DNA from: Candidatus Woesearchaeota archaeon
GTDB lineage: Archaea > Nanobdellota > Nanobdellia > Woesearchaeales > UBA583
Length of the DNA stretch: 64,000 bases
Direction: 5' to 3'
NCBI GenBank assembly: GCA_965205335.1
Contig: OZ242164.1
Span: 128,001 to 192,000, forward strand
This document shows, piece by piece, positions 6,508 to 26,868 of the stretch. The notes under the pieces were generated by a model. The model was not told where the DNA came from. It ran no database searches and worked only from the letters and a program-made list of their open reading frames with translations. A program made the position numbers and the translations under genes. Within the stretch, counting starts at the first letter, position 1. The number at the start of each line of letters is the position of its first letter.

Positions 6508-7314
6508 TTAAAAAGGTTTTTGAGTCTTCTCTTTAAACCATCTTATGAAATTTTTTGTTTTTAAAGAATTTGCTGGAGGAGCAGGTAATTGCAAAAGTTT
6601 CCCATGGCGACAAAAATAGATAGAAATTGTCTTTATTTCTAAATATTTATCTGCTTCATCAATTCCTCCTATGAGGGAAAGAATATAGTAACCTATTAGT
6701 TGGTGAAAGTCTTCTTTTTTGAGTTTGAGGTTTTTAGTTGTTTTGAAATCTATAATTTGGTTATCTAGAATAATATCTGCATCTGCTCCTCCAACCAACC
6801 TAGATGCTTTACCAAAAGTTGGGTTAAGCAAACATATTTTGTTGGCGGTAAATAAATTCTTGTCAACTAAGTTAATTAAATTTCTTAAGTCTTGAATATC
6901 TCCTTCATCAACCTTGTCAATGTTTGGATCAATATAACCAGCTCTATAAATTAGATCTATTTTTGCTAATAAAATAGTTGTTTTTAAAACATCATCAGAT
7001 AAGACTCCATTTTCAAGATACTTCAGATAGACTTTCTTAGCGTTATCTACTGTCTTTTTCAGTTTGTTTTTTAAAACATCACCAGGGATTCTACTTAGGG
7101 CATTTTCTGCTACCCATTCTTTGGTTATTGCGTTTGGATTACTCCGTTTGATGTAAAAACGGAGTAAATAATCAAAAGCTGTTCCAACCAAACCATAATG
7201 TTTAGTGATAGGGGGTGCTTTTAATTCTGCTTTAAGTTCAATTTTAGGCAGTGGAAATGTTTCTACAAATTTCTTTCTCACATCAGGATTTTTTATGAAT
7301 GAAGTTAAACTCAT
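6508..7314 (-). CDS. PD-(D/E)XK nuclease-like protein
   Basis: GTAFDY; ADADIILDNQIIDFKT; QLIGY. Confidence 0.7.
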   Translation of the reverse strand: MSLTSFIKNPDVRKKFVETFPLPKIELKAELKAPPITKHYGLVGTAFDYLLRFYIKRSNPNAITKEWVAENALSRIPGDVLKNKLKKTVDNAKKVYLKYLENGVLSDDVLKTTILLAKIDLIYRAGYIDPNIDKVDEGDIQDLRNLINLVDKNLFTANKICLLNPTFGKASRLVGGADADIILDNQIIDFKTTKNLKLKKEDFHQLIGYYILSLIGGIDEADKYLEIKTISIYFCRHGKLLQLPAPPANSLKTKNFIRWFKEKTQKPF

Positions 7315-10061: not shown

Positions 10062-10101
10062 AGAAATTCAACGTTAGAATTATTTATAAAGTTTTTCAGA
10101 A

Positions 10102-10154
10102 GAGGTGTAGAACTCATCTAGAAACCCCACCTCAAGATCTCTAGGGTGCATGTT
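10102..10154 (-). ncRNA. Putative pseudoknot sRNA upstream of NYN (class 1, copy 1)
   Basis: S1 CUAGAGAUCU/GGGUUUCUAG, S2 GAGGUG/CACCUC; own TATA box at ~10175-10184; covaries with the copy at 18039-18093. Confidence 0.65.
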
Positions 10155-10250
10155 AATTATTGTAATAATTCTATATTTATATAGTTTTCTATGTTTTCTT
10201 ACTTTTCTAAACTTTCTATACTGACTTAGGGTGTTAGGTGGATATTTTGC

Positions 10251-17998: not shown

Positions 17999-18038
17999 TA
18001 AGAATTCTTAGAAGAAATACTTTATAAATTTTATCTAA

Positions 18039-18093
18039 GGGGGTGTAGAACATCATCTAGAAACCCCACCCCGAGATCTCTAGGGTGCATGTT
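18039..18093 (-). ncRNA. Putative pseudoknot sRNA upstream of NYN (class 1, copy 2)
   Basis: S1 CUAGAGAUCU/GGGUUUCUAG, S2 GGGGUG/CACCCC; own TATA box upstream. Confidence 0.65.
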
Positions 18094-18181
18094 AGTTTAT
18101 TCTAAGACTTCTTTATTTATATAGTTTTCTATGTTTTCTAAACTTTCTATACTGACTTAGGGTGTTAGGTGGATATTTTGC

Positions 18182-19654: not shown

Positions 19655-20678
19655 GGCTCTGTCCATAAATTAATTTTTTTAAAATAAAAGAGATGAAAAT
19701 ACTATTTGATACTAAAACATTATCATTTTTCTTTTGAAAATTATCCAATTTTCATAGAAGAAAATTACATAAGAAAGTTTTTTTCTAATGTTATACCACA
19801 GAATATTCTATGCCATCTCCCTTTTTTTCATAAAATGTATCCTACTTCTGATATTTAGGCCTTGAACTCTCTTGAGGGATGAAAACACACTCTCGACATT
19901 GTTCCTTTTATTGTATATTTCTTTGTTTTTGAAGTATTTTTGTTTGATTTTCCAATGCTTAAAAGCATTATGCTTGGTTTTTGCATAGTCTTTTGGCGGG
20001 AAAATCAAATCTATATCTTTATCATTTAGAAAATCTAAATGATCAAAGGAAAAATATCCTTTGTCTGCCACAATAACACTCTTCTTTATTTTGAGTCTTT
20101 TGAAAAGTTTGTTTGCAACTTTTGAATCATGCTGATTCTTAACCAAGAAAGAATAAGTCAATTATTTGTTTAGAGCCTTGTACGTCACAAATTATATCTA
20201 ATTTGTGCCAAGGTGATTTGGGTTCAAATCCAATCCGATGTTTGTAATAAGTAGTTTTATGGTCTGCATCAATTCCCGAACCATCAATTGCTACAATGTC
20301 TGGATTAGGATTTTCTAAAGAAAGTCTAATTAGGTTGCGGATAAAACTAACTGAGAAGAACTTTAACCACTTATGAAGTGTTGATTTCTTTGGAAGGCGT
20401 TTTAACTGCAACCAATGTTTCCAAATAGTTAAACTGCCGTCTATGTTGCTTACAAACCTTCTAAAGGATTTTCCTGATTGGATGTATAAGACTATTATAG
20501 AAACTCTTTGATAATTGTTAAAGAGTTTGCAACCTCTCACAAAATTGTGAGGCCTTAACCTTAAACTATGACAAAGTTTAAGTACTTCCATATGTAAACT
20601 ATTAGTAAAGTTGGTGTGTTCTAACATAAAAAACTATCAACTTTACACTTTATTAATTCTTCGATTTGAATCAGTGCC
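19655..20678 (-). mobile_element. IS5-family element, defective copy
   Basis: Near-identical to 45445-46474; 7-bp deletion in the right-hand TIR. Confidence 0.9.
19712..20627 (-). pseudogene. Transposase pseudogene
   Basis: 1-nt insertion near 20157 (frameshift) and TGG->TAG near 19808 relative to the intact copy. Confidence 0.9.
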
Positions 20679-20683
20679 GCTTT

Positions 20684-20756
20684 CATGGCATTACACATCT
20701 TCTTATGAGTTTGACAACTTTCAGAGAAAGTTGAGGTGGTGACATATGCAACACAT
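20684..20756. mobile_element. Family-2 MITE remnant
   Basis: Reverse-complement match to 12772-12840. Confidence 0.6.
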
Positions 20757-20759
20757 CTT

Positions 20760-21302
20760 ATTCTCTGTAAAAAAACTTATTTAGAATTTATTTATTTATT
20801 AAGTGTGTTACTTCAAATTCTTTTAAAAGTTTCTGGGATATGTTTTTTTCAAAATAGCATAATTCTATTTTTTTATTGTTTTCTTTTAGATTCTTAATTA
20901 CTGGGATAAAATCTCCATCACCACTAATTAGAATGAATTTTTCACAAATGTTTTCATAGTTACATTTAAGCATATCAACTGCTAAATTTACATCATCTCC
21001 TTTGATTATATATTGTTCTTTTTCCTCAATTAATCTTTTATGTCTCTTGCATAGGATAATATTGAAATTTTTAATTTTTCTTAATCTTTTAAAAAATTCC
21101 TGTTGTTTTACAAATAAATTTTCAAGACCCTTTAATTTTTTTAGAGAACCATTATAATAAAAGATTTCTACTATAATTTCTTTGTCTCCTATTAAATAAT
21201 TTATATATTTTTCAAAATCAAAACTAATATCAGAATATCTCTTATTTATTGTCCTAACACCATAGAAGAAATTAGCCCCATCTATAAAAAACAAACTTTC
21301 AT
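20760..21302 (-). pseudogene. NYN-domain ribonuclease, class 2, inactivated
   Basis: FIDGANFFYG, KGDDVNLAVD, SGDGDF; 1-nt deletion after codon 3 and premature TAA at 20788 versus the paralogue at 25704. Confidence 0.8.
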
Positions 21303-21369
21303 TTTAAAAACCCATTTGTAAACCAAATGGGATACCTAGCAAGTTTTTTTTAGGAACTCTGAAACCTAC
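21303..21369 (-). ncRNA. Putative pseudoknot + hairpin leader RNA of NYN (class 2, copy A)
   Basis: UAGG-UUUCAGAGUU-CCUA-A7-CUUG, then hairpin CCCAUUUG/CAAAUGGG; TATA at ~21388-21397. Confidence 0.6.
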
Positions 21370-21645
21370 TATAATACTATAATAAGATATTTATAAACAT
21401 ATCTGAAAATTGACTTGACAACAAATGAAGGGAAAAAAAGTTAGAATCTCAATTGAAAAAATTATTTGTCAAAAATTGCTATATTTCTTGAATTTCTGGA
21501 CAAATGTTAGTTATTTTGCCTAATTCAAATAGATACTATTGAGAAAAACTCTTGTAAATGATGCTGTGACTGGAAAGGTCTGTGTAATCTAACACCATAA
21601 TAGTAAAATTTGTAAAAATTCCGAACTTTACGCAAAGTAGTACTA

Positions 21646-21669
21646 TTTTTGTAGTAATTACTACAAAAA
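21646..21669. promoter_or_regulatory. Perfect 24-bp palindrome (probable operator) upstream of the MNT-HEPN operon
   Basis: TTTTTGTAGTAATTACTACAAAAA just upstream of TATA tttataaata. Confidence 0.65.
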
Positions 21670-21708
21670 AAGAAGTAGTTTTATAAATAAACAAAACCTA
21701 GCTCTTTT

Positions 21709-22326
21709 ATGATTAAACCTGAAGAAAAAATATTTTTGGCATTCTTTGAAAGCAGAGAAGATAAACTTTACTTCAATCAACTTCAAAAATTGACTGGATT
21801 AAGCCCTTCTTCATTAAACAATACAATAAAAAGATTAAAACAAAAAAATATACTTAAAGAAACCAAAACGCAATCAAACACCTTCTATTCAATAAAAGAC
21901 AAAGAAACAAAACATATTGAGTTCTCTAAAATTGCATTAAATAAATTCAATTCCCTAAACTACAAGATTACGTCTCCCCTAAAAGAACTTACAAAACACA
22001 TAAACAACATAAACTCTATAATTCTTTTTGGCTCATCTTCAAGAGGAGAGGAAAGAGAAGAGAGTGACATAGATTTGTTATTTATAATAAACTTATACAA
22101 AAATAAAAAACTACAAGAATCATATGAACAGGAAACTAAGAAAATAATAGAATATGCAAAACAGAAAGCAAGTTTACTGAGCATATATCCAATAAGCATA
22201 TTCATTACAGACGAGAATAATTTTATAAAAGCAAAGAAAGATTATTTAATACAAAGTGCTAAAAATACAGGATATCCGATATTTAACAGGGAACAGTACT
22301 ACAAATTAATTGAGAATGAAAATTGA
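21709..22326 (+). CDS. HTH + minimal nucleotidyltransferase (MNT) antitoxin
   Basis: LFGSSSRGEEREESDIDL; N-terminal wHTH. Confidence 0.88.
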   Translation: MIKPEEKIFLAFFESREDKLYFNQLQKLTGLSPSSLNNTIKRLKQKNILKETKTQSNTFYSIKDKETKHIEFSKIALNKFNSLNYKITSPLKELTKHINNINSIILFGSSSRGEEREESDIDLLFIINLYKNKKLQESYEQETKKIIEYAKQKASLLSIYPISIFITDENNFIKAKKDYLIQSAKNTGYPIFNREQYYKLIENEN

Positions 22327-22822
22327 AGAACTAATTGAGGATAAAAAGAAGATTGAAGAACTTTATAAGAACTATTTAAACAAAAAACTAATTATAAAAT
22401 CAAAAGATCATAATTTGCTCAAAAAAACTCATATTGAAAAAGCAAAACATAATCTGGGTTTTGCAGAAAAAATACTAAACTTTGAAGACTATAATGACTG
22501 GATAATAATCTCTCTTTACTACACCCTATATCATAGTTTTCTGGCATTAGTTCAAAAAAAAGGTTACTCTTCCAAAAATCACAATGCAACTCTGACATTT
22601 ATCTTAAAACATTACATTGAATTTGAAAAAGCAGAACTTGAACTATTTGTTAACTTAAAAATATCAGAAGAAGACGCAATATTCTATTCAAGATTAAAAG
22701 AATACAGGACAAAAGCAAGTTACTCAACCAATATTAATTTCAAGAATGAAGACGTAAATGAACTAAACAAAAAAGTAAAAAAACTGCTAATTAAAATAAA
22801 TCATATTATTGAAAATGAATAA
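22316..22822 (+). CDS. HEPN-domain protein
   Basis: AKHNL...WIIISLYYTLYH...SKNH...RTKASY; overlaps the MNT stop. Confidence 0.85.
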   Translation: MKIEELIEDKKKIEELYKNYLNKKLIIKSKDHNLLKKTHIEKAKHNLGFAEKILNFEDYNDWIIISLYYTLYHSFLALVQKKGYSSKNHNATLTFILKHYIEFEKAELELFVNLKISEEDAIFYSRLKEYRTKASYSTNINFKNEDVNELNKKVKKLLIKINHIIENE

Positions 22823-22982
22823 ACACATAAATCTGATTCTTCTCTCCCAAAATTCTTTTTAAGTTCTTTACCGTTTGCGAGTACAAAAATAAAGTAGTTT
22901 CTATTGTTTTTCTTTGAATATTGCAGAAAATCTTCAAAAATTAGCGAAAATTATTTAAATACAGATGAATTATTTTATAATT

Positions 22983-24260
22983 ATGCTAATTAGTTTCAAG
23001 GTTAAAAATTTTTTATCAATAAAAGATGAAGTTGAGTTGAGTTTAGACTCTACATCTAGCAAATCTAATCCTAAGAATTTGTTTAAGGCGGGAGGTTATA
23101 CTTTATTAAATTCCTGTGTAATTTATGGTCCTAATGCTTCAGGTAAGTCAAATATTATCAAAGCAATTTTTTTTGTATGGAATTTAGTTAAAAATTCACT
23201 TAATTTTAACGAGGATGTTAGATTATCAGATCCTCCATTTAATTTGAGGCAATTTAAATTAGATAAAAAGATGTCCCAAATGCCAAGTGAGTTTGAAATT
23301 TATTTTATTAAAAATGATATTGAGTACATATATGGTTTTTCCTGTAATGAAACTAAGATAATTAAGGAGTTTCTGAAGTATAAACCAAAAGGAGAAAATT
23401 TTAAAGAAATTTTTGCAAGAGATGAACAATTCAACGAAGAATTCAAATTTACTCATGATAAAAATAAACAAAGGAAAATTGAGGAATTTACAAATAAAAA
23501 CACATTGTATTTGTCAAAATCAACTCAATTTAATTATGAAAAGATAAAACCTGCTTATGATTTTATTGCTAATGATTTAGTTATTAACTATAGCCCTTCT
23601 TGGAGTGATTATACAATGAAAAAAATCCATGAGGATGTCAAATTTAAAGATAAAGTGGTTGATATACTAGAGAGAGCAGATTTTGGAGGAATTGTTGACT
23701 TGAATGTGAAGAAAAAGAAAGGGAAAGTTAGTGGTTTTGAAGTTAAATTTGAAGGCAAGAGCCCGAGCCTTAAGGAGATTGATGAAGAAGGAGATTTTTA
23801 TGATTTAAAAATATCTCACCCAACTAAGGATGGTAAGGTAGAATATTTTGAGATAAATGAAGAATCAATAGGGACCCAGAAAGTATTTAACATGTTAGGA
23901 CCAATCTTTAATATTTTTGAAACTGGAAAAGTTTTAATTATTGATGAATTAGAATCAAGTTTACATCCCAATATTACTCGTTTTTTAGTAAAGTTATTTA
24001 GTAGCAAGTATAACAAGAAGAATGGGCAAATTATATTTACGACACACGACACAACTTTATTGAAAGAAGAGGAATTATTTAGAAGAGACCAGGTTTACAT
24101 TTGTTCTAAAAGACCTAATGAACAAACAGAGTTATATAGTTTAGTTGATTTTAAGTTAAGAGAAGATATGAACTTTGAGAAAGCCTATTTTGGGGGGAGA
24201 GTTGGAGGACTTCCATTTATTGATGAAACTTTTTTTGATGAAAATGACGAGGAGAAATAG
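22983..24260 (+). CDS. RloA-like AAA_21 ATPase
   Basis: FKVKNFLSI, GPNASGKSN, ESIGT, IDELESSLHP, FTTH, Y..GRVGGLP. Confidence 0.9.
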   Translation: MLISFKVKNFLSIKDEVELSLDSTSSKSNPKNLFKAGGYTLLNSCVIYGPNASGKSNIIKAIFFVWNLVKNSLNFNEDVRLSDPPFNLRQFKLDKKMSQMPSEFEIYFIKNDIEYIYGFSCNETKIIKEFLKYKPKGENFKEIFARDEQFNEEFKFTHDKNKQRKIEEFTNKNTLYLSKSTQFNYEKIKPAYDFIANDLVINYSPSWSDYTMKKIHEDVKFKDKVVDILERADFGGIVDLNVKKKKGKVSGFEVKFEGKSPSLKEIDEEGDFYDLKISHPTKDGKVEYFEINEESIGTQKVFNMLGPIFNIFETGKVLIIDELESSLHPNITRFLVKLFSSKYNKKNGQIIFTTHDTTLLKEEELFRRDQVYICSKRPNEQTELYSLVDFKLREDMNFEKAYFGGRVGGLPFIDETFFDENDEEK

Positions 24261-24471
24261 GAATATTAAAAAATCTACTAGAACTTTATGGATATTTTGT
24301 GAAGGTCATACTGAAGAGAGATATTTTAAGAATTTGAAGTTTAATGAGCGTTTGAGAATCAAATCTAGATTGGCTAGGAGGTCTTCTCCTGATTCAATTG
24401 TTGAAAAAGCAATAAGGTTTTTAGAAAATGGAGGTGAATTTGAGAGCGGAGATTTAATTTGTTGTGTTTAA
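24244..24471 (+). pseudogene. RloB-like TOPRIM protein truncated by a MITE fragment
   Basis: IFCEGHTEERYF; frame is cut at CVF(D) by a MITE end (24468-24506). Confidence 0.8.
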
Positions 24472-24578
24472 CACTTTAAGTTTTCTTGAATTTCCGGACA
24501 GAATCCTAAATCTGAATTCTTTTTAACTCATCAGATCTTTTAAACTTCTGTCCGCAATACCAAATCTAAAAACAAGGC

Positions 24579-24914
24579 TTAACCCTTATATCTAAATTTT
24601 TTATTATATTCCTTGTGATCAATAATTGCAAGAATAAATGCAATAATCTCCACTTCATTTCCCTTTATGGTATAAAGCAGTCTCCAAAAATTTGAAATTT
24701 CAACCCTATATAGATTTTCATATTGTAAATACTCCCTTGGAATCAGATTTTTTCTAATAGGATCTCCAAACTGAGGATTTGTTCTGAGTCTTTCCTTTAC
24801 TTTGTCAATTGATTTTAGAAGTATCCTTGCCTGCTTGTCAGATCTTTTCTTTAATTGAGAATAGTTTTCAATTGCCTCACCAAGCAACCTTACTCTAACT
24901 TCTTTATCAACCAT
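24579..24914 (-). CDS. RelE/ParE-like toxin
   Basis: NPQFGDPI...NLYRVEISNFWRLLYTI. Confidence 0.7.
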   Translation of the reverse strand: MVDKEVRVRLLGEAIENYSQLKKRSDKQARILLKSIDKVKERLRTNPQFGDPIRKNLIPREYLQYENLYRVEISNFWRLLYTIKGNEVEIIAFILAIIDHKEYNKKFRYKG

Positions 24915-24916
24915 CT

Positions 24917-25186
24917 TTACAATTCAATGCTGTTTTTAATTAACTTATCCATCTCCTTTGGATTTGTATAAATCCATTGAACTCCTTTTGGTCCGTAAAT
25001 TATCTTTCCGCTCTCCCACAAATACTCTAAAATAACCTTCAAAGTCTGATGCATAACTTGTCTTGGGAGAGATTTTCTTATTTCTGACACTTTCATCGGA
25101 ACAGAATTATTCTTTTGCAGAAATTCCTCAACCATAAGCACAGTTCCAAGATTAGGGTATCTGCCTTTCTTGAGCATATTTTCCAT
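24917..25186 (-). CDS. Small wHTH protein, putative antitoxin
   Basis: PNLGTVLMVE...LPRQVMHQTLKVILEYL; directly upstream of the RelE-like gene. Confidence 0.65.
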   Translation of the reverse strand: MENMLKKGRYPNLGTVLMVEEFLQKNNSVPMKVSEIRKSLPRQVMHQTLKVILEYLWESGKIIYGPKGVQWIYTNPKEMDKLIKNSIEL

Positions 25187-25308
25187 TTTTATATATGTTA
25201 ATATTAAAAAAGTATTAATAGATATATATAGTTTACATTTACTTATATATAAAACTTTTCATAGTTGGCAACATTCTTAATCACATCTAAGGACTTTTTA
25301 GTGATATT

Positions 25309-25530
25309 TTAATTCTTTATCTTCCAATATCCTCCCCTATCAGGCCCTACCCTTTCAATAATACCTTTCCTTTTCAGTTTATCTAATTGAAATTTAACCC
25401 CATCTTCACTAATTCCTACTAATTGAGATAATTCTCTCCTACTAACTTTAGGATTTTTCATAATCAAAGTAACTATTTTTCTAGTAGTTTTGTGAGTGAT
25501 TTTCTGGGCAGTTTTCTGGGTAGTTTTCAT
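25309..25530 (-). CDS. Winged-HTH fragment, duplicate of 2239-2484
   Basis: Near-identical but with two fewer 12-bp repeats; followed by a half MITE at 25531-25591. Confidence 0.65.
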   Translation of the reverse strand: MKTTQKTAQKITHKTTRKIVTLIMKNPKVSRRELSQLVGISEDGVKFQLDKLKRKGIIERVGPDRGGYWKIKN

Positions 25531-25591
25531 TTGTCAAAAATTACTTTATTTATATAACACTTTAAGTTCTCTTGAATTTCCGGACAGAGCC
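25531..25591. mobile_element. Half of a family-1 MITE
   Basis: Ends in AATTTCCGGACAGAGCC. Confidence 0.85.
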
Positions 25592-25633
25592 GAACTAAAG
25601 AAAAGTTTATAAATATCTATATGTTATATATAT

Positions 25634-25700
25634 TAAGTTTCATGGTCACTTGTAAAAAAACCTGCTTCGTATTCCCTCCCTCATTCGTGATGGAGGTTTT
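25634..25700 (+). ncRNA. Putative pseudoknot + hairpin leader RNA of NYN (class 2, copy B)
   Basis: UAAG-UUUCAUGGUCA-CUUG-UA7-CCUG, then a CCUCC..UUCG..GGAGG hairpin; TATA at 25606-25615. Confidence 0.6.
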
Positions 25701-25703
25701 AAA

Positions 25704-26261
25704 ATGAAAGTTCTTGTTTTTATAGATGGTGCTAATTTCTTTTATGGCATAAGAAGTATTAGATCTAAATATAGTGATTTAAATTTTAATTTTGAAAAAT
25801 ATATAAAAAATGAGATTTTAAAAGAAGCAGATGAATTATTGAACGTTTTCTATTACAATGCTCCATTAAAAAACTTAGGTGGAAATAATAATCTGTATGC
25901 TAAACAACAAAGATTTTTTATAAAATTAGAGAAAACAGAAAAGTTCAAAGTAATTTTGTGTAAAAGGCAGAAGAGATTAAATGAAAGAGGAGAAGAGTTT
26001 CACGTAATTAAAGGTGATGACATTCATTTAGCAGTTGATTTAGTTAGATGTTTATATGAAACAGAAGTTGATAAGATAATTTTAATGAGTGGAGATGGGG
26101 ATTTCAAACCTGCAATCAGATTGGCAAAAGAGAAAGATAAAATTGTAAATCTGTGTTATTTTAAAGATAACATTTCTAAGAATATTTATAATATAACAAA
26201 TCAGAAGTATTTAATAGATAAAAGAATTTTAAATAAATATTTTTATAGATGGAAAAAATGA
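25704..26261 (+). CDS. NYN-domain ribonuclease, class 2 (intact)
   Basis: VFIDGANFFYG, KGDDIHLAVD, SGDGDFKP. Confidence 0.9.
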   Translation: MKVLVFIDGANFFYGIRSIRSKYSDLNFNFEKYIKNEILKEADELLNVFYYNAPLKNLGGNNNLYAKQQRFFIKLEKTEKFKVILCKRQKRLNERGEEFHVIKGDDIHLAVDLVRCLYETEVDKIILMSGDGDFKPAIRLAKEKDKIVNLCYFKDNISKNIYNITNQKYLIDKRILNKYFYRWKK

Positions 26262-26451
26262 AAATAGGAACTGTAATTCCTATGCACAAATCATTAAAAG
26301 TTGGAAGGGATTTATTACTCTGAAAAAATAGATAATTCTGAAAATTGGTTGTTTATTTATGAGTATTCTATTTTGATGGGGAAAAAAGAAGGATTTGATA
26401 AATCACCATTATTTAAAAAGCTAAGAGAAAGAAATATTTCTTTTATAGAAT

Positions 26452-26868
26452 ATGAGAAATTATAATGAATCACTAAATGTTGCTCAAAAGTTGTACACAG
26501 ATAATACTTCAAGTTTGTGGGTAATAGTTAGTAGTTATTATTCTATGTTTTATCTTGCAAATGCAGTGTTATACAAGTTAGGATATAAGGTAGGAGATAA
26601 AATTGCACATAAAATAACATCTGATGCGTTAATAGTTTTAGTTAAAGATAAACTAAGTACTTATATTTTAAATGAGTATGAGATTGCAAGCGAAGAGGCA
26701 TTGTTGATTTCTAATAATTTAATTGAGAATTATGATTTTGAGAGAATAAAAAGGTCTAAATTACAGTATGAATCTACTGAAGAAATTAAAATATCAAAAG
26801 CAAGAACTTCCTTAGATAGAGCAAAAAGGTTTGCTTTGGAGTTAGAAAATTATCTTGAGAAATTATGA
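26452..26868 (+). CDS. HEPN-domain protein (possibly 5'-truncated)
   Basis: WVIVSSYYSMFY...AHKIT...RSKLQY. Confidence 0.75.
   Translation: MRNYNESLNVAQKLYTDNTSSLWVIVSSYYSMFYLANAVLYKLGYKVGDKIAHKITSDALIVLVKDKLSTYILNEYEIASEEALLISNNLIENYDFERIKRSKLQYESTEEIKISKARTSLDRAKRFALELENYLEKL

Follow-up and report, generated by a model that had tools for sequence, protein, structure and literature searches.

A pseudoknot-and-hairpin leader RNA linked to one clade of NYN nuclease genes in DPANN archaea

Structured RNAs placed ahead of nuclease genes, or near the start of their messengers, are known from several settings. In the type III toxin-antitoxin systems ToxIN, CptIN and TenpIN, a promoter is followed by a pseudoknot RNA, a hairpin with a U-run and the gene of a nuclease with a ToxN/AbiQ-type fold; small H-type pseudoknots in the 5' part of messenger RNAs (mRNAs) form riboswitches, namely preQ1-I and also preQ1-II, SAM-II and fluoride; and control of a nuclease's own mRNA by way of a leader or stem-loop is a familiar theme, examples being RNase III (rnc leader), RNase E (rne 5' untranslated region) and the NYN-like Regnase-1, which cuts a stem-loop in its own message. 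We analysed a leader RNA found directly upstream of two genes for LabA-type NYN nucleases in a stretch of 64,000 nucleotides (hereafter the window) from the genome of a Candidatus Woesearchaeota archaeon (contig OZ242164.1, positions 128,001 to 192,000), together with the relatives of this leader in other genomes. The two units are termed copy A (25704-26261, forward strand) and copy B (20788-21294, reverse strand), with positions counted from the first letter of the window.

The proteins of copies A and B share their family, PF01936, with the LabA/COG1432 proteins, of which the 2017 catalogue of PF01936 (NYN) clusters holds ~8,750 sequences (PMC5499597), and with HEC-09, an NYN protein embedded in defence systems (bioRxiv 10.1101/2024.01.29.577857). 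According to the available portion of that preprint, HEC-09 is defined by its embedding in Hma systems and carries an additional domain at its N-terminus. The neighbours of A and B are other toxin-antitoxin and Abi genes. An associated RNA goes unmentioned in the available portions of both sources, and the literature, mainly in the form of abstracts, gives no account of an RNA that goes with NYN/LabA genes, nor of a type III system that is archaeal or built on an NYN protein. The preliminary description of this DNA had pointed to ToxI and preQ1 as the models to look for in Rfam. Rfam 15 held no matching family: none reached its gathering score in the window, nothing relevant was found at E ≤ 10 in positions 20500-26500, ToxI and preQ1 models included, and at E ≤ 1 no match fell on the leaders of 20 loci covering all leader types. 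The leader RNA family appears to be undescribed and absent from Rfam 15.

The NYN leader module is not a member of ToxIN, CptIN, TenpIN or preQ1-I, although it may work like the type III systems. With ToxIN, CptIN and TenpIN it shares the order of promoter, pseudoknot RNA, hairpin with U-run (the latter a putative terminator) and nuclease gene, and like them it is self-contained, with no protein antitoxin gene nearby, and occurs patchily and in multiple copies in defence and toxin-antitoxin islands. It differs from them in its nuclease, which is of the LabA NYN type (PIN-like), and in its archaeal host, type III systems being reported from bacteria, and once from bacteria and viruses, in the abstracts and other parts of the literature available. 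Of the toxIN layout recognized earlier at this locus, the order of the parts was retained, but membership in toxIN was abandoned in view of the NYN fold, the lack of tandem repeats and the lack of an Rfam match. A resemblance to preQ1-I had also been proposed; like this and other small H-type pseudoknot riboswitches, the leader is a small pseudoknot in the 5' part of an mRNA with conserved junction bases and, in the window copies, an A-rich third loop (L3). A tie to preQ1-I itself did not hold up, since no Rfam covariance model matches, the only associated gene is that of an NYN nuclease and not one for queuosine/preQ1 synthesis or transport, the A-rich L3 is peculiar to the window copies, most NYN leaders holding a hairpin there, and the 3' strand of the pseudoknot is without a ribosome-binding site. 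As in rnc, rne and Regnase-1, a hairpin lies near the start codon in the nuclease's own mRNA and is a plausible feedback site; unlike these single housekeeping genes, the NYN module is accessory, multi-copy and mobile-looking, has an extra pseudoknot domain and, in some clades, seems to own both promoter and terminator.

The leader is a real structured RNA class, a pseudoknot followed by a hairpin, linked to one NYN clade. The copy A protein has 103 homologues, and the homologous loci lie in related genomes labelled Woesearchaeota, Pacearchaeota and Nanoarchaeota, which are DPANN archaea. NYN loci were taken with their flanks, 80 from 425 species-genome matches and 80 from 393 metagenome-contig matches, and the 140 nt before each start were read. 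Most close relatives (41-50% identical to copy A) have a strongly conserved leader; P0002-P0008, which at 62-71% identity are nearest to copy A, lie outside the leader set. A covariance model, R1, was built from 38 leaders of other genomes aligned with MAFFT (alignment A5), leaving out the window copies. Applied at E ≤ 0.01 to the 100 loci of the closest NYN relatives (L007-L106), R1 gave 83 matches, every one on the strand of the NYN gene, and by reading of their alignment (A6) the pseudoknot domain was found in 78, the remaining ones (L097, L102, L077, L075 and L078) being hairpin-only. An absence of the motif upstream of other homologues of this kind, called class 2 in the preliminary description and named there as the outcome that would speak against the proposal, was thus not what we found. 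The 60 more distant loci (L107-L166) yielded just two weak R1 matches.

In the consensus, the first helix (P1) has 7 bp and a 6-nt loop, CAGGKA, and is followed by two A residues; P2 is a 3-bp stem mostly capped by UUCG, with two hairpins at its place in some members; a 4-nt strand (UMCC) then pairs with the P1 loop to form the pseudoknot; and the 3' part comprises an invariant GC, a linker of 2-4 nt, GURU, the hairpin P3 with a (U)CCC 5' base, a U-run and the start codon. In A5, 95.2% of the cells are paired, as against 29-47% when the partners are slid, and the pseudoknot helix is 99.3% paired, three of its four pairs having changed on both sides. The same helix is 95.5% paired across the 83 matches of A6, where all four pairs have changed on both sides, the clearest being GC in 49 leaders, UA in 26, AU in 3 and another combination in 1. 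Because R1 does not and cannot encode a pseudoknot, this pairing in A6 is free of model bias. P1, P2 and P3 also covary in A6, an alignment itself fitted to those helices, and RNAalifold on A5 independently recovers P1, P2 and the base of P3. Frequent G-U pairs (in A6, UG in 47 leaders at one P1 pair and GU in 15 at one pseudoknot pair) would become A-C mismatches on the opposite strand, so it is the sense strand of the NYN gene that folds. The claim that a pseudoknot and a hairpin lie between an archaeal promoter and the nuclease open reading frame (ORF) is thus substantiated by family-wide covariation in P1, P2, P3 and the pseudoknot. Other ideas about the leader were tried and rejected, namely an upstream ORF (the short GURU frame of some subtypes ends variably, copy A has none, and the changes in P3 are compensatory and not synonymous), an anti-terminator helix joining the P1 loop to P3's 5' arm, which is without compensation in GGUA-type loops, and a likeness of P1 to the 3' region of 16S rRNA, an 8-nt match dropped as unsupported.

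The layout of the two window copies was taken base by base, directly from the window sequence; helices present in the minimum free energy (MFE) fold are marked as such.

25704-26261, forward strand: NYN nuclease gene A, 185 aa (PF01936 E 3.1e-16, 60.6 bits, cut-off 24.2)
25606-25615, forward strand: TATA box of copy A, TTTATAAATA, starting 28 nt 5' of P1, spacer 18 nt; from sequence
25634-25703, forward strand: leader RNA of copy A (R1 match 25628-25706, 17.8 bits, rough E 0.008)
25634-25637 with 25649-25652, forward strand: P1 of copy A, 4 bp, loop 25638-25648
25644-25646 (GGU) with 25660-25662 (ACC), forward strand: pseudoknot of copy A, placed manually on alignment A6
25653-25660, forward strand: A-run (A-rich L3) of copy A; from sequence
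25661-25666, forward strand: CCUGCU of copy A, including the conserved GC (25664-25665), with GUAU at 25669-25672; from sequence
25675-25696, forward strand: P3 hairpin of copy A, CCUCC 25675-25679 with GGAGG 25692-25696; in the MFE fold
25697-25700, forward strand: U-run of copy A, UUUUAAA and then ATG at 25704
20788-21294, reverse strand: NYN gene B, a 168-aa ORF from TTG 21294 (PF01936 E 2e-19, 71 bits, cut-off 24.2)
21397-21388, reverse strand: TATA box of copy B, the same 10-mer TTTATAAATA, 19 nt before P1; from sequence
21303-21368, reverse strand: leader RNA of copy B (R1 match 21300-21375, 18.3 bits, rough E 0.006)
21368-21365 (UAGG) with 21354-21351 (CCUA), reverse strand: P1 of copy B, 4 bp; in the MFE fold
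21359-21356 (GAGU) with 21344-21341 (ACUU), reverse strand: pseudoknot of copy B, placed manually on alignment A6
21350-21344, reverse strand: A-run of copy B, with CUUGCU..GUAU next
21331-21324 with 21318-21311, reverse strand: P3 hairpin of copy B, in the MFE fold, then UUUUUAAA and ATG 21302-21300
21310-21306, reverse strand: U-run of copy B; from sequence

Every element that the preliminary description had listed upstream of the two NYN genes was found in place. The promoter regions share 14 identical bases (alignment A1), and the common layout consists of the 10-mer box, 18 or 19 nt, a 4-bp P1, a loop of 10-11 nt and an A-run, followed in the 3' half by CYUGCU, GUAU, a hairpin differing in sequence, UUUU(U)AAA and ATG. 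Covariation between the copies, also reported earlier, is present both in stem 1, where one pair is compensatory (A-U versus G-C), and in the loop-to-tail pairing, which is GGU/ACC in copy A and GAGU/ACUU in copy B. With this manual placement, three of the four pseudoknot pairs are retained in copy A and all four in copy B, and one pair in copy A and two in copy B are altered on both sides relative to the family consensus. Both copies are reduced members of the family, with P1 down to 4 bp and an A-run in place of P2 (this A-rich linker is restricted to them, most members having the small hairpin P2 there), and both retain all of the unpaired CA, GC, GUAU and YCCC motifs.

The two window copies by themselves are weak evidence, with only one or two compensatory pairs between them, and single-leader folding was no better than that of shuffles (MFE z -0.26 and -1.07), so thermodynamics alone gives no support. 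R1, a de novo covariance model of the kind suggested in the preliminary description, recovered both: run with filters off over the 64 kb and both strands, it placed copy B first and copy A second among the 28 listed matches, the next best scoring 13.4 bits (versus 18.3 and 17.8). Because a model built from other genomes ranks both leaders on top, their layout is beyond chance, and both belong to the leader family that R1 defines, without P2 and at modest scores (~18 bits). An R1 match at 7008-7122 (12.8 bits, E 0.28) was discarded as chance, being apparently coding sequence.

Proteins A and B are 51% identical and both retain the IDGAN, KGDD and SGDGDF motifs. The columns invariant among 39 family sequences include D8, N11, D105, D131 and D133, and D8, D105, D131 and D133 are present in both proteins, for which PF01936 is the sole Pfam family above cut-off. 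A family profile finds 2qip (E 2e-12) as the only solved relative, one of unassigned function, and the hidden Markov model of the PADLOC candidate HEC-09 matches A (E 2.2e-14) and B (E 1.1e-12) over most of the profile. Copy B had been described as a broken paralogue starting at 21302. Its ATG at 21302-21300, which aligns with the start of copy A, is one base out of frame at a T-run and is followed by TAG after 6 codons; contigs from three runs of one sample, the likely source and so not independent of the assembly, have no indel in this T-run at a depth of ~5, which leaves the frameshift neither confirmed nor mended. With a 168-aa ORF that keeps all catalytic motifs, the gene does not look clearly broken.

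The linkage of the leader to NYN genes was examined in whole genomes with R1, in 101 relatives of the window genome, 5 carriers, 151 further genomes labelled as same order and 41 relatives of one carrier, about 290 genomes overall, with stricter filters in the large searches. Twelve of the 13 distinct matches abut an NYN gene on the same strand, and the thirteenth (L179, 1501-1588, 60.7 bits) is a decayed orphan leader whose ORF has been deleted down to a 6-codon stub. At this last locus, an MNT/HEPN-like pair lies on the strand opposite the orphan leader. Similarly, 81 of the 83 locus matches precede NYN genes, the other two (L085 885-971 and L086 2079-2181) being weaker orphan copies downstream of NYN genes. 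DPANN archaea thus put the leader RNA almost only before this kind of NYN gene, and RNA and nuclease therefore most likely act as a pair.

The geometry of the module is also constrained. In 74 of the 83 locus matches the end of the match is exactly the ATG; the NYN start lies 3 to ~150 nt beyond it in L066, L088, L019, L042, L048 and L055, no clear start codon follows in L013, and the match in L050 ends in ATG, yet a small ORF sits between leader and NYN gene. A TATA-like box starts 26-30 nt 5' of the first P1 base in 67 of 82 leaders, a spacing that, together with the usual archaeal promoter geometry, puts the predicted RNA start at or beside P1, a start we infer from the promoter. At the other end, P3 stops 8-17 nt before the ATG (10-13 nt in 61 of 74 leaders) and is followed by a T-run of at least 4 in 55 of 74. 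A crude mechanical count over the 44 window ORFs placed a TATA-like box 25-39 nt ahead of the ATG in 21 and a Shine-Dalgarno (SD)-like motif in only 4; most genes of the window look leaderless, and a leader of about 68 nt would be unusual among them. The preliminary description had the hairpin of copy B burying a GGAGG. That GGAGG belongs to the copy at 25704, and at its place in the 3' arm of P3 the relatives read CCGGA or CUGGGA, with no conserved SD-like arm; since SD-like motifs are rare in the window, the GGAGG is probably incidental, and its burial, confined to one copy, was given up as a general mechanism.

Distant NYN genes have the hairpin module alone, made up of a UAUAY-type single strand, a YCCC base, often a UUGC-UUCG-GCAA apex, and a U-run, and R1 still matches some such hairpin-only leaders of other NYN clades through P3 (L097, L102, L077, L075, L078 and L117). 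The median energy of the 60 nt before the start is -15.0 kcal/mol for 155 NYN homologues and -5.5 for 296 flanking ORFs, with MFE ≤ -12 in 118 and 39 of them, respectively (Mann-Whitney p ~3e-31). The 77 rows of the pseudoknot class require 2 changes on the NYN tree, which was built with FastTree, rooted at the midpoint and has some long branches, against a shuffled mean of 50, so that on this tree the class appears to be essentially one clade and leader class to follow the tree. Both results bear out the general partnership of NYN genes and RNA that had been proposed from the window. Copies A and B are sisters (support 97), and the rows nearest to them are pseudoknot-class loci with diverged leaders, including the sole same-genus carrier (L007, identical to L170).

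Some of these other clades carry signs that the RNA is transcribed separately from the ORF. In six hairpin-only loci (L063, L073, L081, L083, L103 and L136) a second TATA-like box was found by reading after the U-run, ~25-35 nt before the ATG. With the class-1 NYN genes of the window, the conserved RNA region is another one, rich in G/C and preceded by a TATA box of its own (18030-18130 and 10100-10200, both reverse strand), and a second TATA-like box lies ~30 nt before the ATG, which makes this RNA look like a separate small transcription unit. The two copies sit within a longer duplicated segment. In the bacterial-looking relatives L135, L137, L140 and L143, 2-3 tandem hairpin modules were seen by eye ~100 nt before the start, each with a CUCC/CCCC 5' base and the last one with a U-run followed by GGAGG and ATG, an arrangement resembling a repeat array. 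Only distant NYN relatives (≤ 39% identity) were found in viral contigs, with no pseudoknot leader in the seven upstream regions read. The sixth NYN gene of the window genome (211 aa), which lies outside the window, likewise has a leader of ~55 nt (L003 1120-1212), and the 7-bp hairpin in it stops 12 nt short of the start codon. In one metagenome contig (L155 1-1394) an NYN gene is immediately preceded by the end of a 23S rRNA and by a gene for archaeal RNase P RNA (93 bits), an arrangement seen once.

The window genome is a single contig of 1.2 Mb and low GC, with six PF01936 matches, five of them within the window. The 6 kb around A and B form a toxin-antitoxin and defence island, with an MNT-HEPN pair, an AbiL-like ATPase, a ParE-like toxin and small winged helix-turn-helix (wHTH) genes; the AbiL-like pair at 22965-24471 seems broken, its ATPase being intact (PADLOC AbiLi E 5e-88) and its RloB-like partner covering profile positions 3-72 of 195. 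Across 82 loci, no conserved neighbour was found within 1.5 kb of the RNA and NYN unit, the largest flanking cluster comprising 3 loci. The unit also lacks a conserved 3' element. The NYN protein (E ≤ 1e-10) occurs in 1 of 19 same-genus genomes and in 0 of 21 other genomes of the order. The leader RNA is carried by 2 of 100 relatives of the window genome, by 2 of 150 further genomes, one carrier being common to these two sets, and by 1 of 40 relatives of one carrier (reference genome not counted). In the five carrier genomes (0.6-1.2 Mb) there are 30 NYN matches, as many as 10 of them in a single genome of ~0.6 Mb, and tandem RNA and NYN units occur at L047. The unit is solitary, patchy and often multi-copy, and its genomics resemble those of a toxin-antitoxin or defence module.

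We read the leader as the nuclease's own RNA partner, which would restrain the nuclease in the manner of a type III toxin-antitoxin system and also serve as a translational operator, and we give this reading a rough probability of 0.45. It is favoured by the single-family linkage, the co-inheritance of RNA type and NYN clade and the hairpin as common core, as well as by the terminator-like end, the signs of separate transcription in sister clades and the selfish-looking genomics. Leader and NYN nuclease would form a self-contained RNA-plus-nuclease module transcribed from a strong promoter, with B recognition element and TATA box, starting at P1. The first 30-55 nt would fold into an H-type pseudoknot with the P2 hairpin or, in the window, the A-run as third loop, followed by P3 with its conserved YCCC 5' base, the U-run and, about 11-12 nt further on, the NYN start. 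P3 and the U-run may terminate many transcripts ahead of the ORF, and P3, sitting at the site of ribosome initiation, would allow little nuclease to be made. The short leader RNA, present in excess, would bind the NYN protein and leave it inactive or occupied, and NYN protein bound to P3 of the full-length mRNA would repress its own translation. Such logic would be that of a type III toxin-antitoxin or abortive-infection module with another nuclease fold and a single-copy RNA. The fold, its conservation, the exclusive NYN linkage, the geometry and the accessory-gene behaviour of the module are plain from the loci compared; to these the reading adds termination at the U-run, binding of RNA by the NYN protein and toxicity of that protein, which we infer.

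A number of observations weigh against this. A search for RNA runs containing positions 20700-26300 found none. Known type III antitoxins are tandem repeats processed by the toxin, but the window leaders are single units: Tandem Repeats Finder detected no repeat of the size of the leader unit in 20700-26300 and, in the leader region, only an 8-nt unit in 2.2 copies (21367-21384). The U-run is short (≤ 3 T) in 19 of 74 leaders, and termination may therefore be weak, and the second promoters were read from TATA-like strings alone. On the protein side, no member of the PF01936 (NYN) clusters is presented as having been studied as a nuclease in the available portion of their catalogue (Matelska et al. 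2017, PMC5499597), HEC-09 gave protection against no phage tried, according to the accessible part of its description (bioRxiv 10.1101/2024.01.29.577857), and the toxicity, even the in vivo RNase activity, of LabA-type NYN proteins is itself presumed. Sequence conservation of the pseudoknot domain far exceeds that of the proteins (~45% identity), and the domain is near-identical among paralogues in one genome; this pattern differs from that of insulated toxin-antitoxin pairs and is closer to what an RNA in contact with a shared ligand or host factor would show. Finally, the tight spacing from P3 to ATG is explained equally well by purely cis regulation.

This spacing is the starting point of a first alternative, a cis-acting autoregulatory operator in which the NYN protein binds or cuts P3 on its own mRNA, with help from the pseudoknot and with no antitoxin role. 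The end of P3, 8-17 nt from the ATG, lies within the region covered by an initiating ribosome, and both the exclusive NYN linkage and the preservation of the hairpin module across distant NYN clades agree with such control, for which rnc, rne and Regnase-1 provide precedent. We nonetheless hold it to be unlikely, though it comes next after the main reading; it accounts neither for the second TATA-like box between hairpin with U-run and ORF, nor for the tandem modules of the bacterial relatives, nor for the selfish, patchy and multi-copy genomics.

The leader might also be a structural element that works independently of any protein, protecting against 5'-to-3' decay or damping the expression of a dangerous gene with no specific partner. 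P1 at the predicted 5' end and the hairpin with U-run just before the ATG fit this, and where most genes look leaderless any structured leader would lower expression. It is rare, however, for passive elements to maintain invariant unpaired bases together with a covarying pseudoknot in several orders at ~45% protein identity, and the conserved YCCC base and hairpin apex across clades suggest recognition by a factor, which makes this option quite improbable.

At most equally probable is a riboswitch, with the pseudoknot as aptamer for a small molecule or ion and P3 with the U-run as expression platform. It would accommodate the compact H-type pseudoknot with invariant unpaired junction bases (CA before and GC after the pseudoknot strands, GURU before P3), a sequence conservation above that of the protein, the hairpin and U-run directly next to it and, in the window copies, an A-rich third loop as in small pseudoknot riboswitches. 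It is weakened by the failure of any Rfam riboswitch to match (E ≤ 10 in the region, E ≤ 1 for 20 loci) and by the single partner gene family (12 of 13 whole-genome matches, the other being a remnant). The supposed platform, P3, is moreover the core conserved across NYN clades, whereas the supposed aptamer is a clade-specific addition in which an A-run can stand in for P2 and only 3 pseudoknot pairs may be left, as in copy A; no conserved alternative pairing of aptamer and P3 was seen, the loop-to-P3 candidate being uncompensated when the loop G changes to U. Removal of the leader by a processing element or through self-cleavage as a ribozyme, leaving a leaderless, translatable NYN mRNA, would suit a pseudoknotted fold ending 8-17 nt before the ATG in a genome that apparently translates mostly leaderless mRNAs with few SD motifs, but it is highly improbable, as no Rfam ribozyme matches and the pistol and HDV (hepatitis delta virus)-like architectures presumably have a helix order unlike that of the NYN leader.

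If the leader is read as an RNA partner of its nuclease, a broader claim suggests itself, which we regard as doubtful: the LabA-type NYN nucleases found in DPANN archaea, probably with those of ultra-small bacteria as well, could be a large and hitherto unrecognized class of RNA-controlled toxins or defence proteins, each clade with its own neutralizing cis RNA, be it a pseudoknot leader, a single hairpin or tandem hairpins, and so constitute a fourth, NYN-based family of type III-like systems and the first in archaea.

Two other kinds of repeated sequence were noted in and around the island. A dispersed repeat with the core TCTTGAATTTCCGGACA has 10 copies in the window at ≤ 3 mismatches, against 0.35 expected.

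2524, 7596, 9431, 17298, 21486, 24484, 25570 and, marked as reverse strand, 19228, 48820 and 61853: copies of the TCTTGAATTTCCGGACA repeat

Longer versions exist at 24469-24502 and 25555-25588 (34 nt, 97%) and as inverted pairs, 63 and 89 nt in length. One of the copies shares positions with the promoter of the wHTH gene at 25309-25530 (reverse strand), and the RloB-like ORF at 24175-24471 ends where another begins. The repeat could be a cassette-boundary, operator or MITE (miniature inverted-repeat transposable element)-like element of the island. At 20699-20748, a 50-nt stretch with an 8-bp palindrome has 12 copies in the genome at 96-100% identity and a contig depth much above its surroundings; it adjoins the ORF at 20139-20627 (reverse strand), which has a weak match to IS5-family transposases, and is probably the end of an insertion sequence just past the 3' end of NYN copy B.

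For the NYN family, a covariation-backed RNA that travels with the genes would be the first concrete molecular partner. Should this RNA neutralize the nuclease, archaea and a new nuclease fold would come within the range of type III-like toxin-antitoxin or abortive-infection logic; were it to sense a ligand instead, it would represent a new archaeal riboswitch class. DPANN genomes of ~1 Mb nevertheless hold up to ten NYN genes, which implies that the module, whatever its action, matters to organisms not yet culturable on their own.

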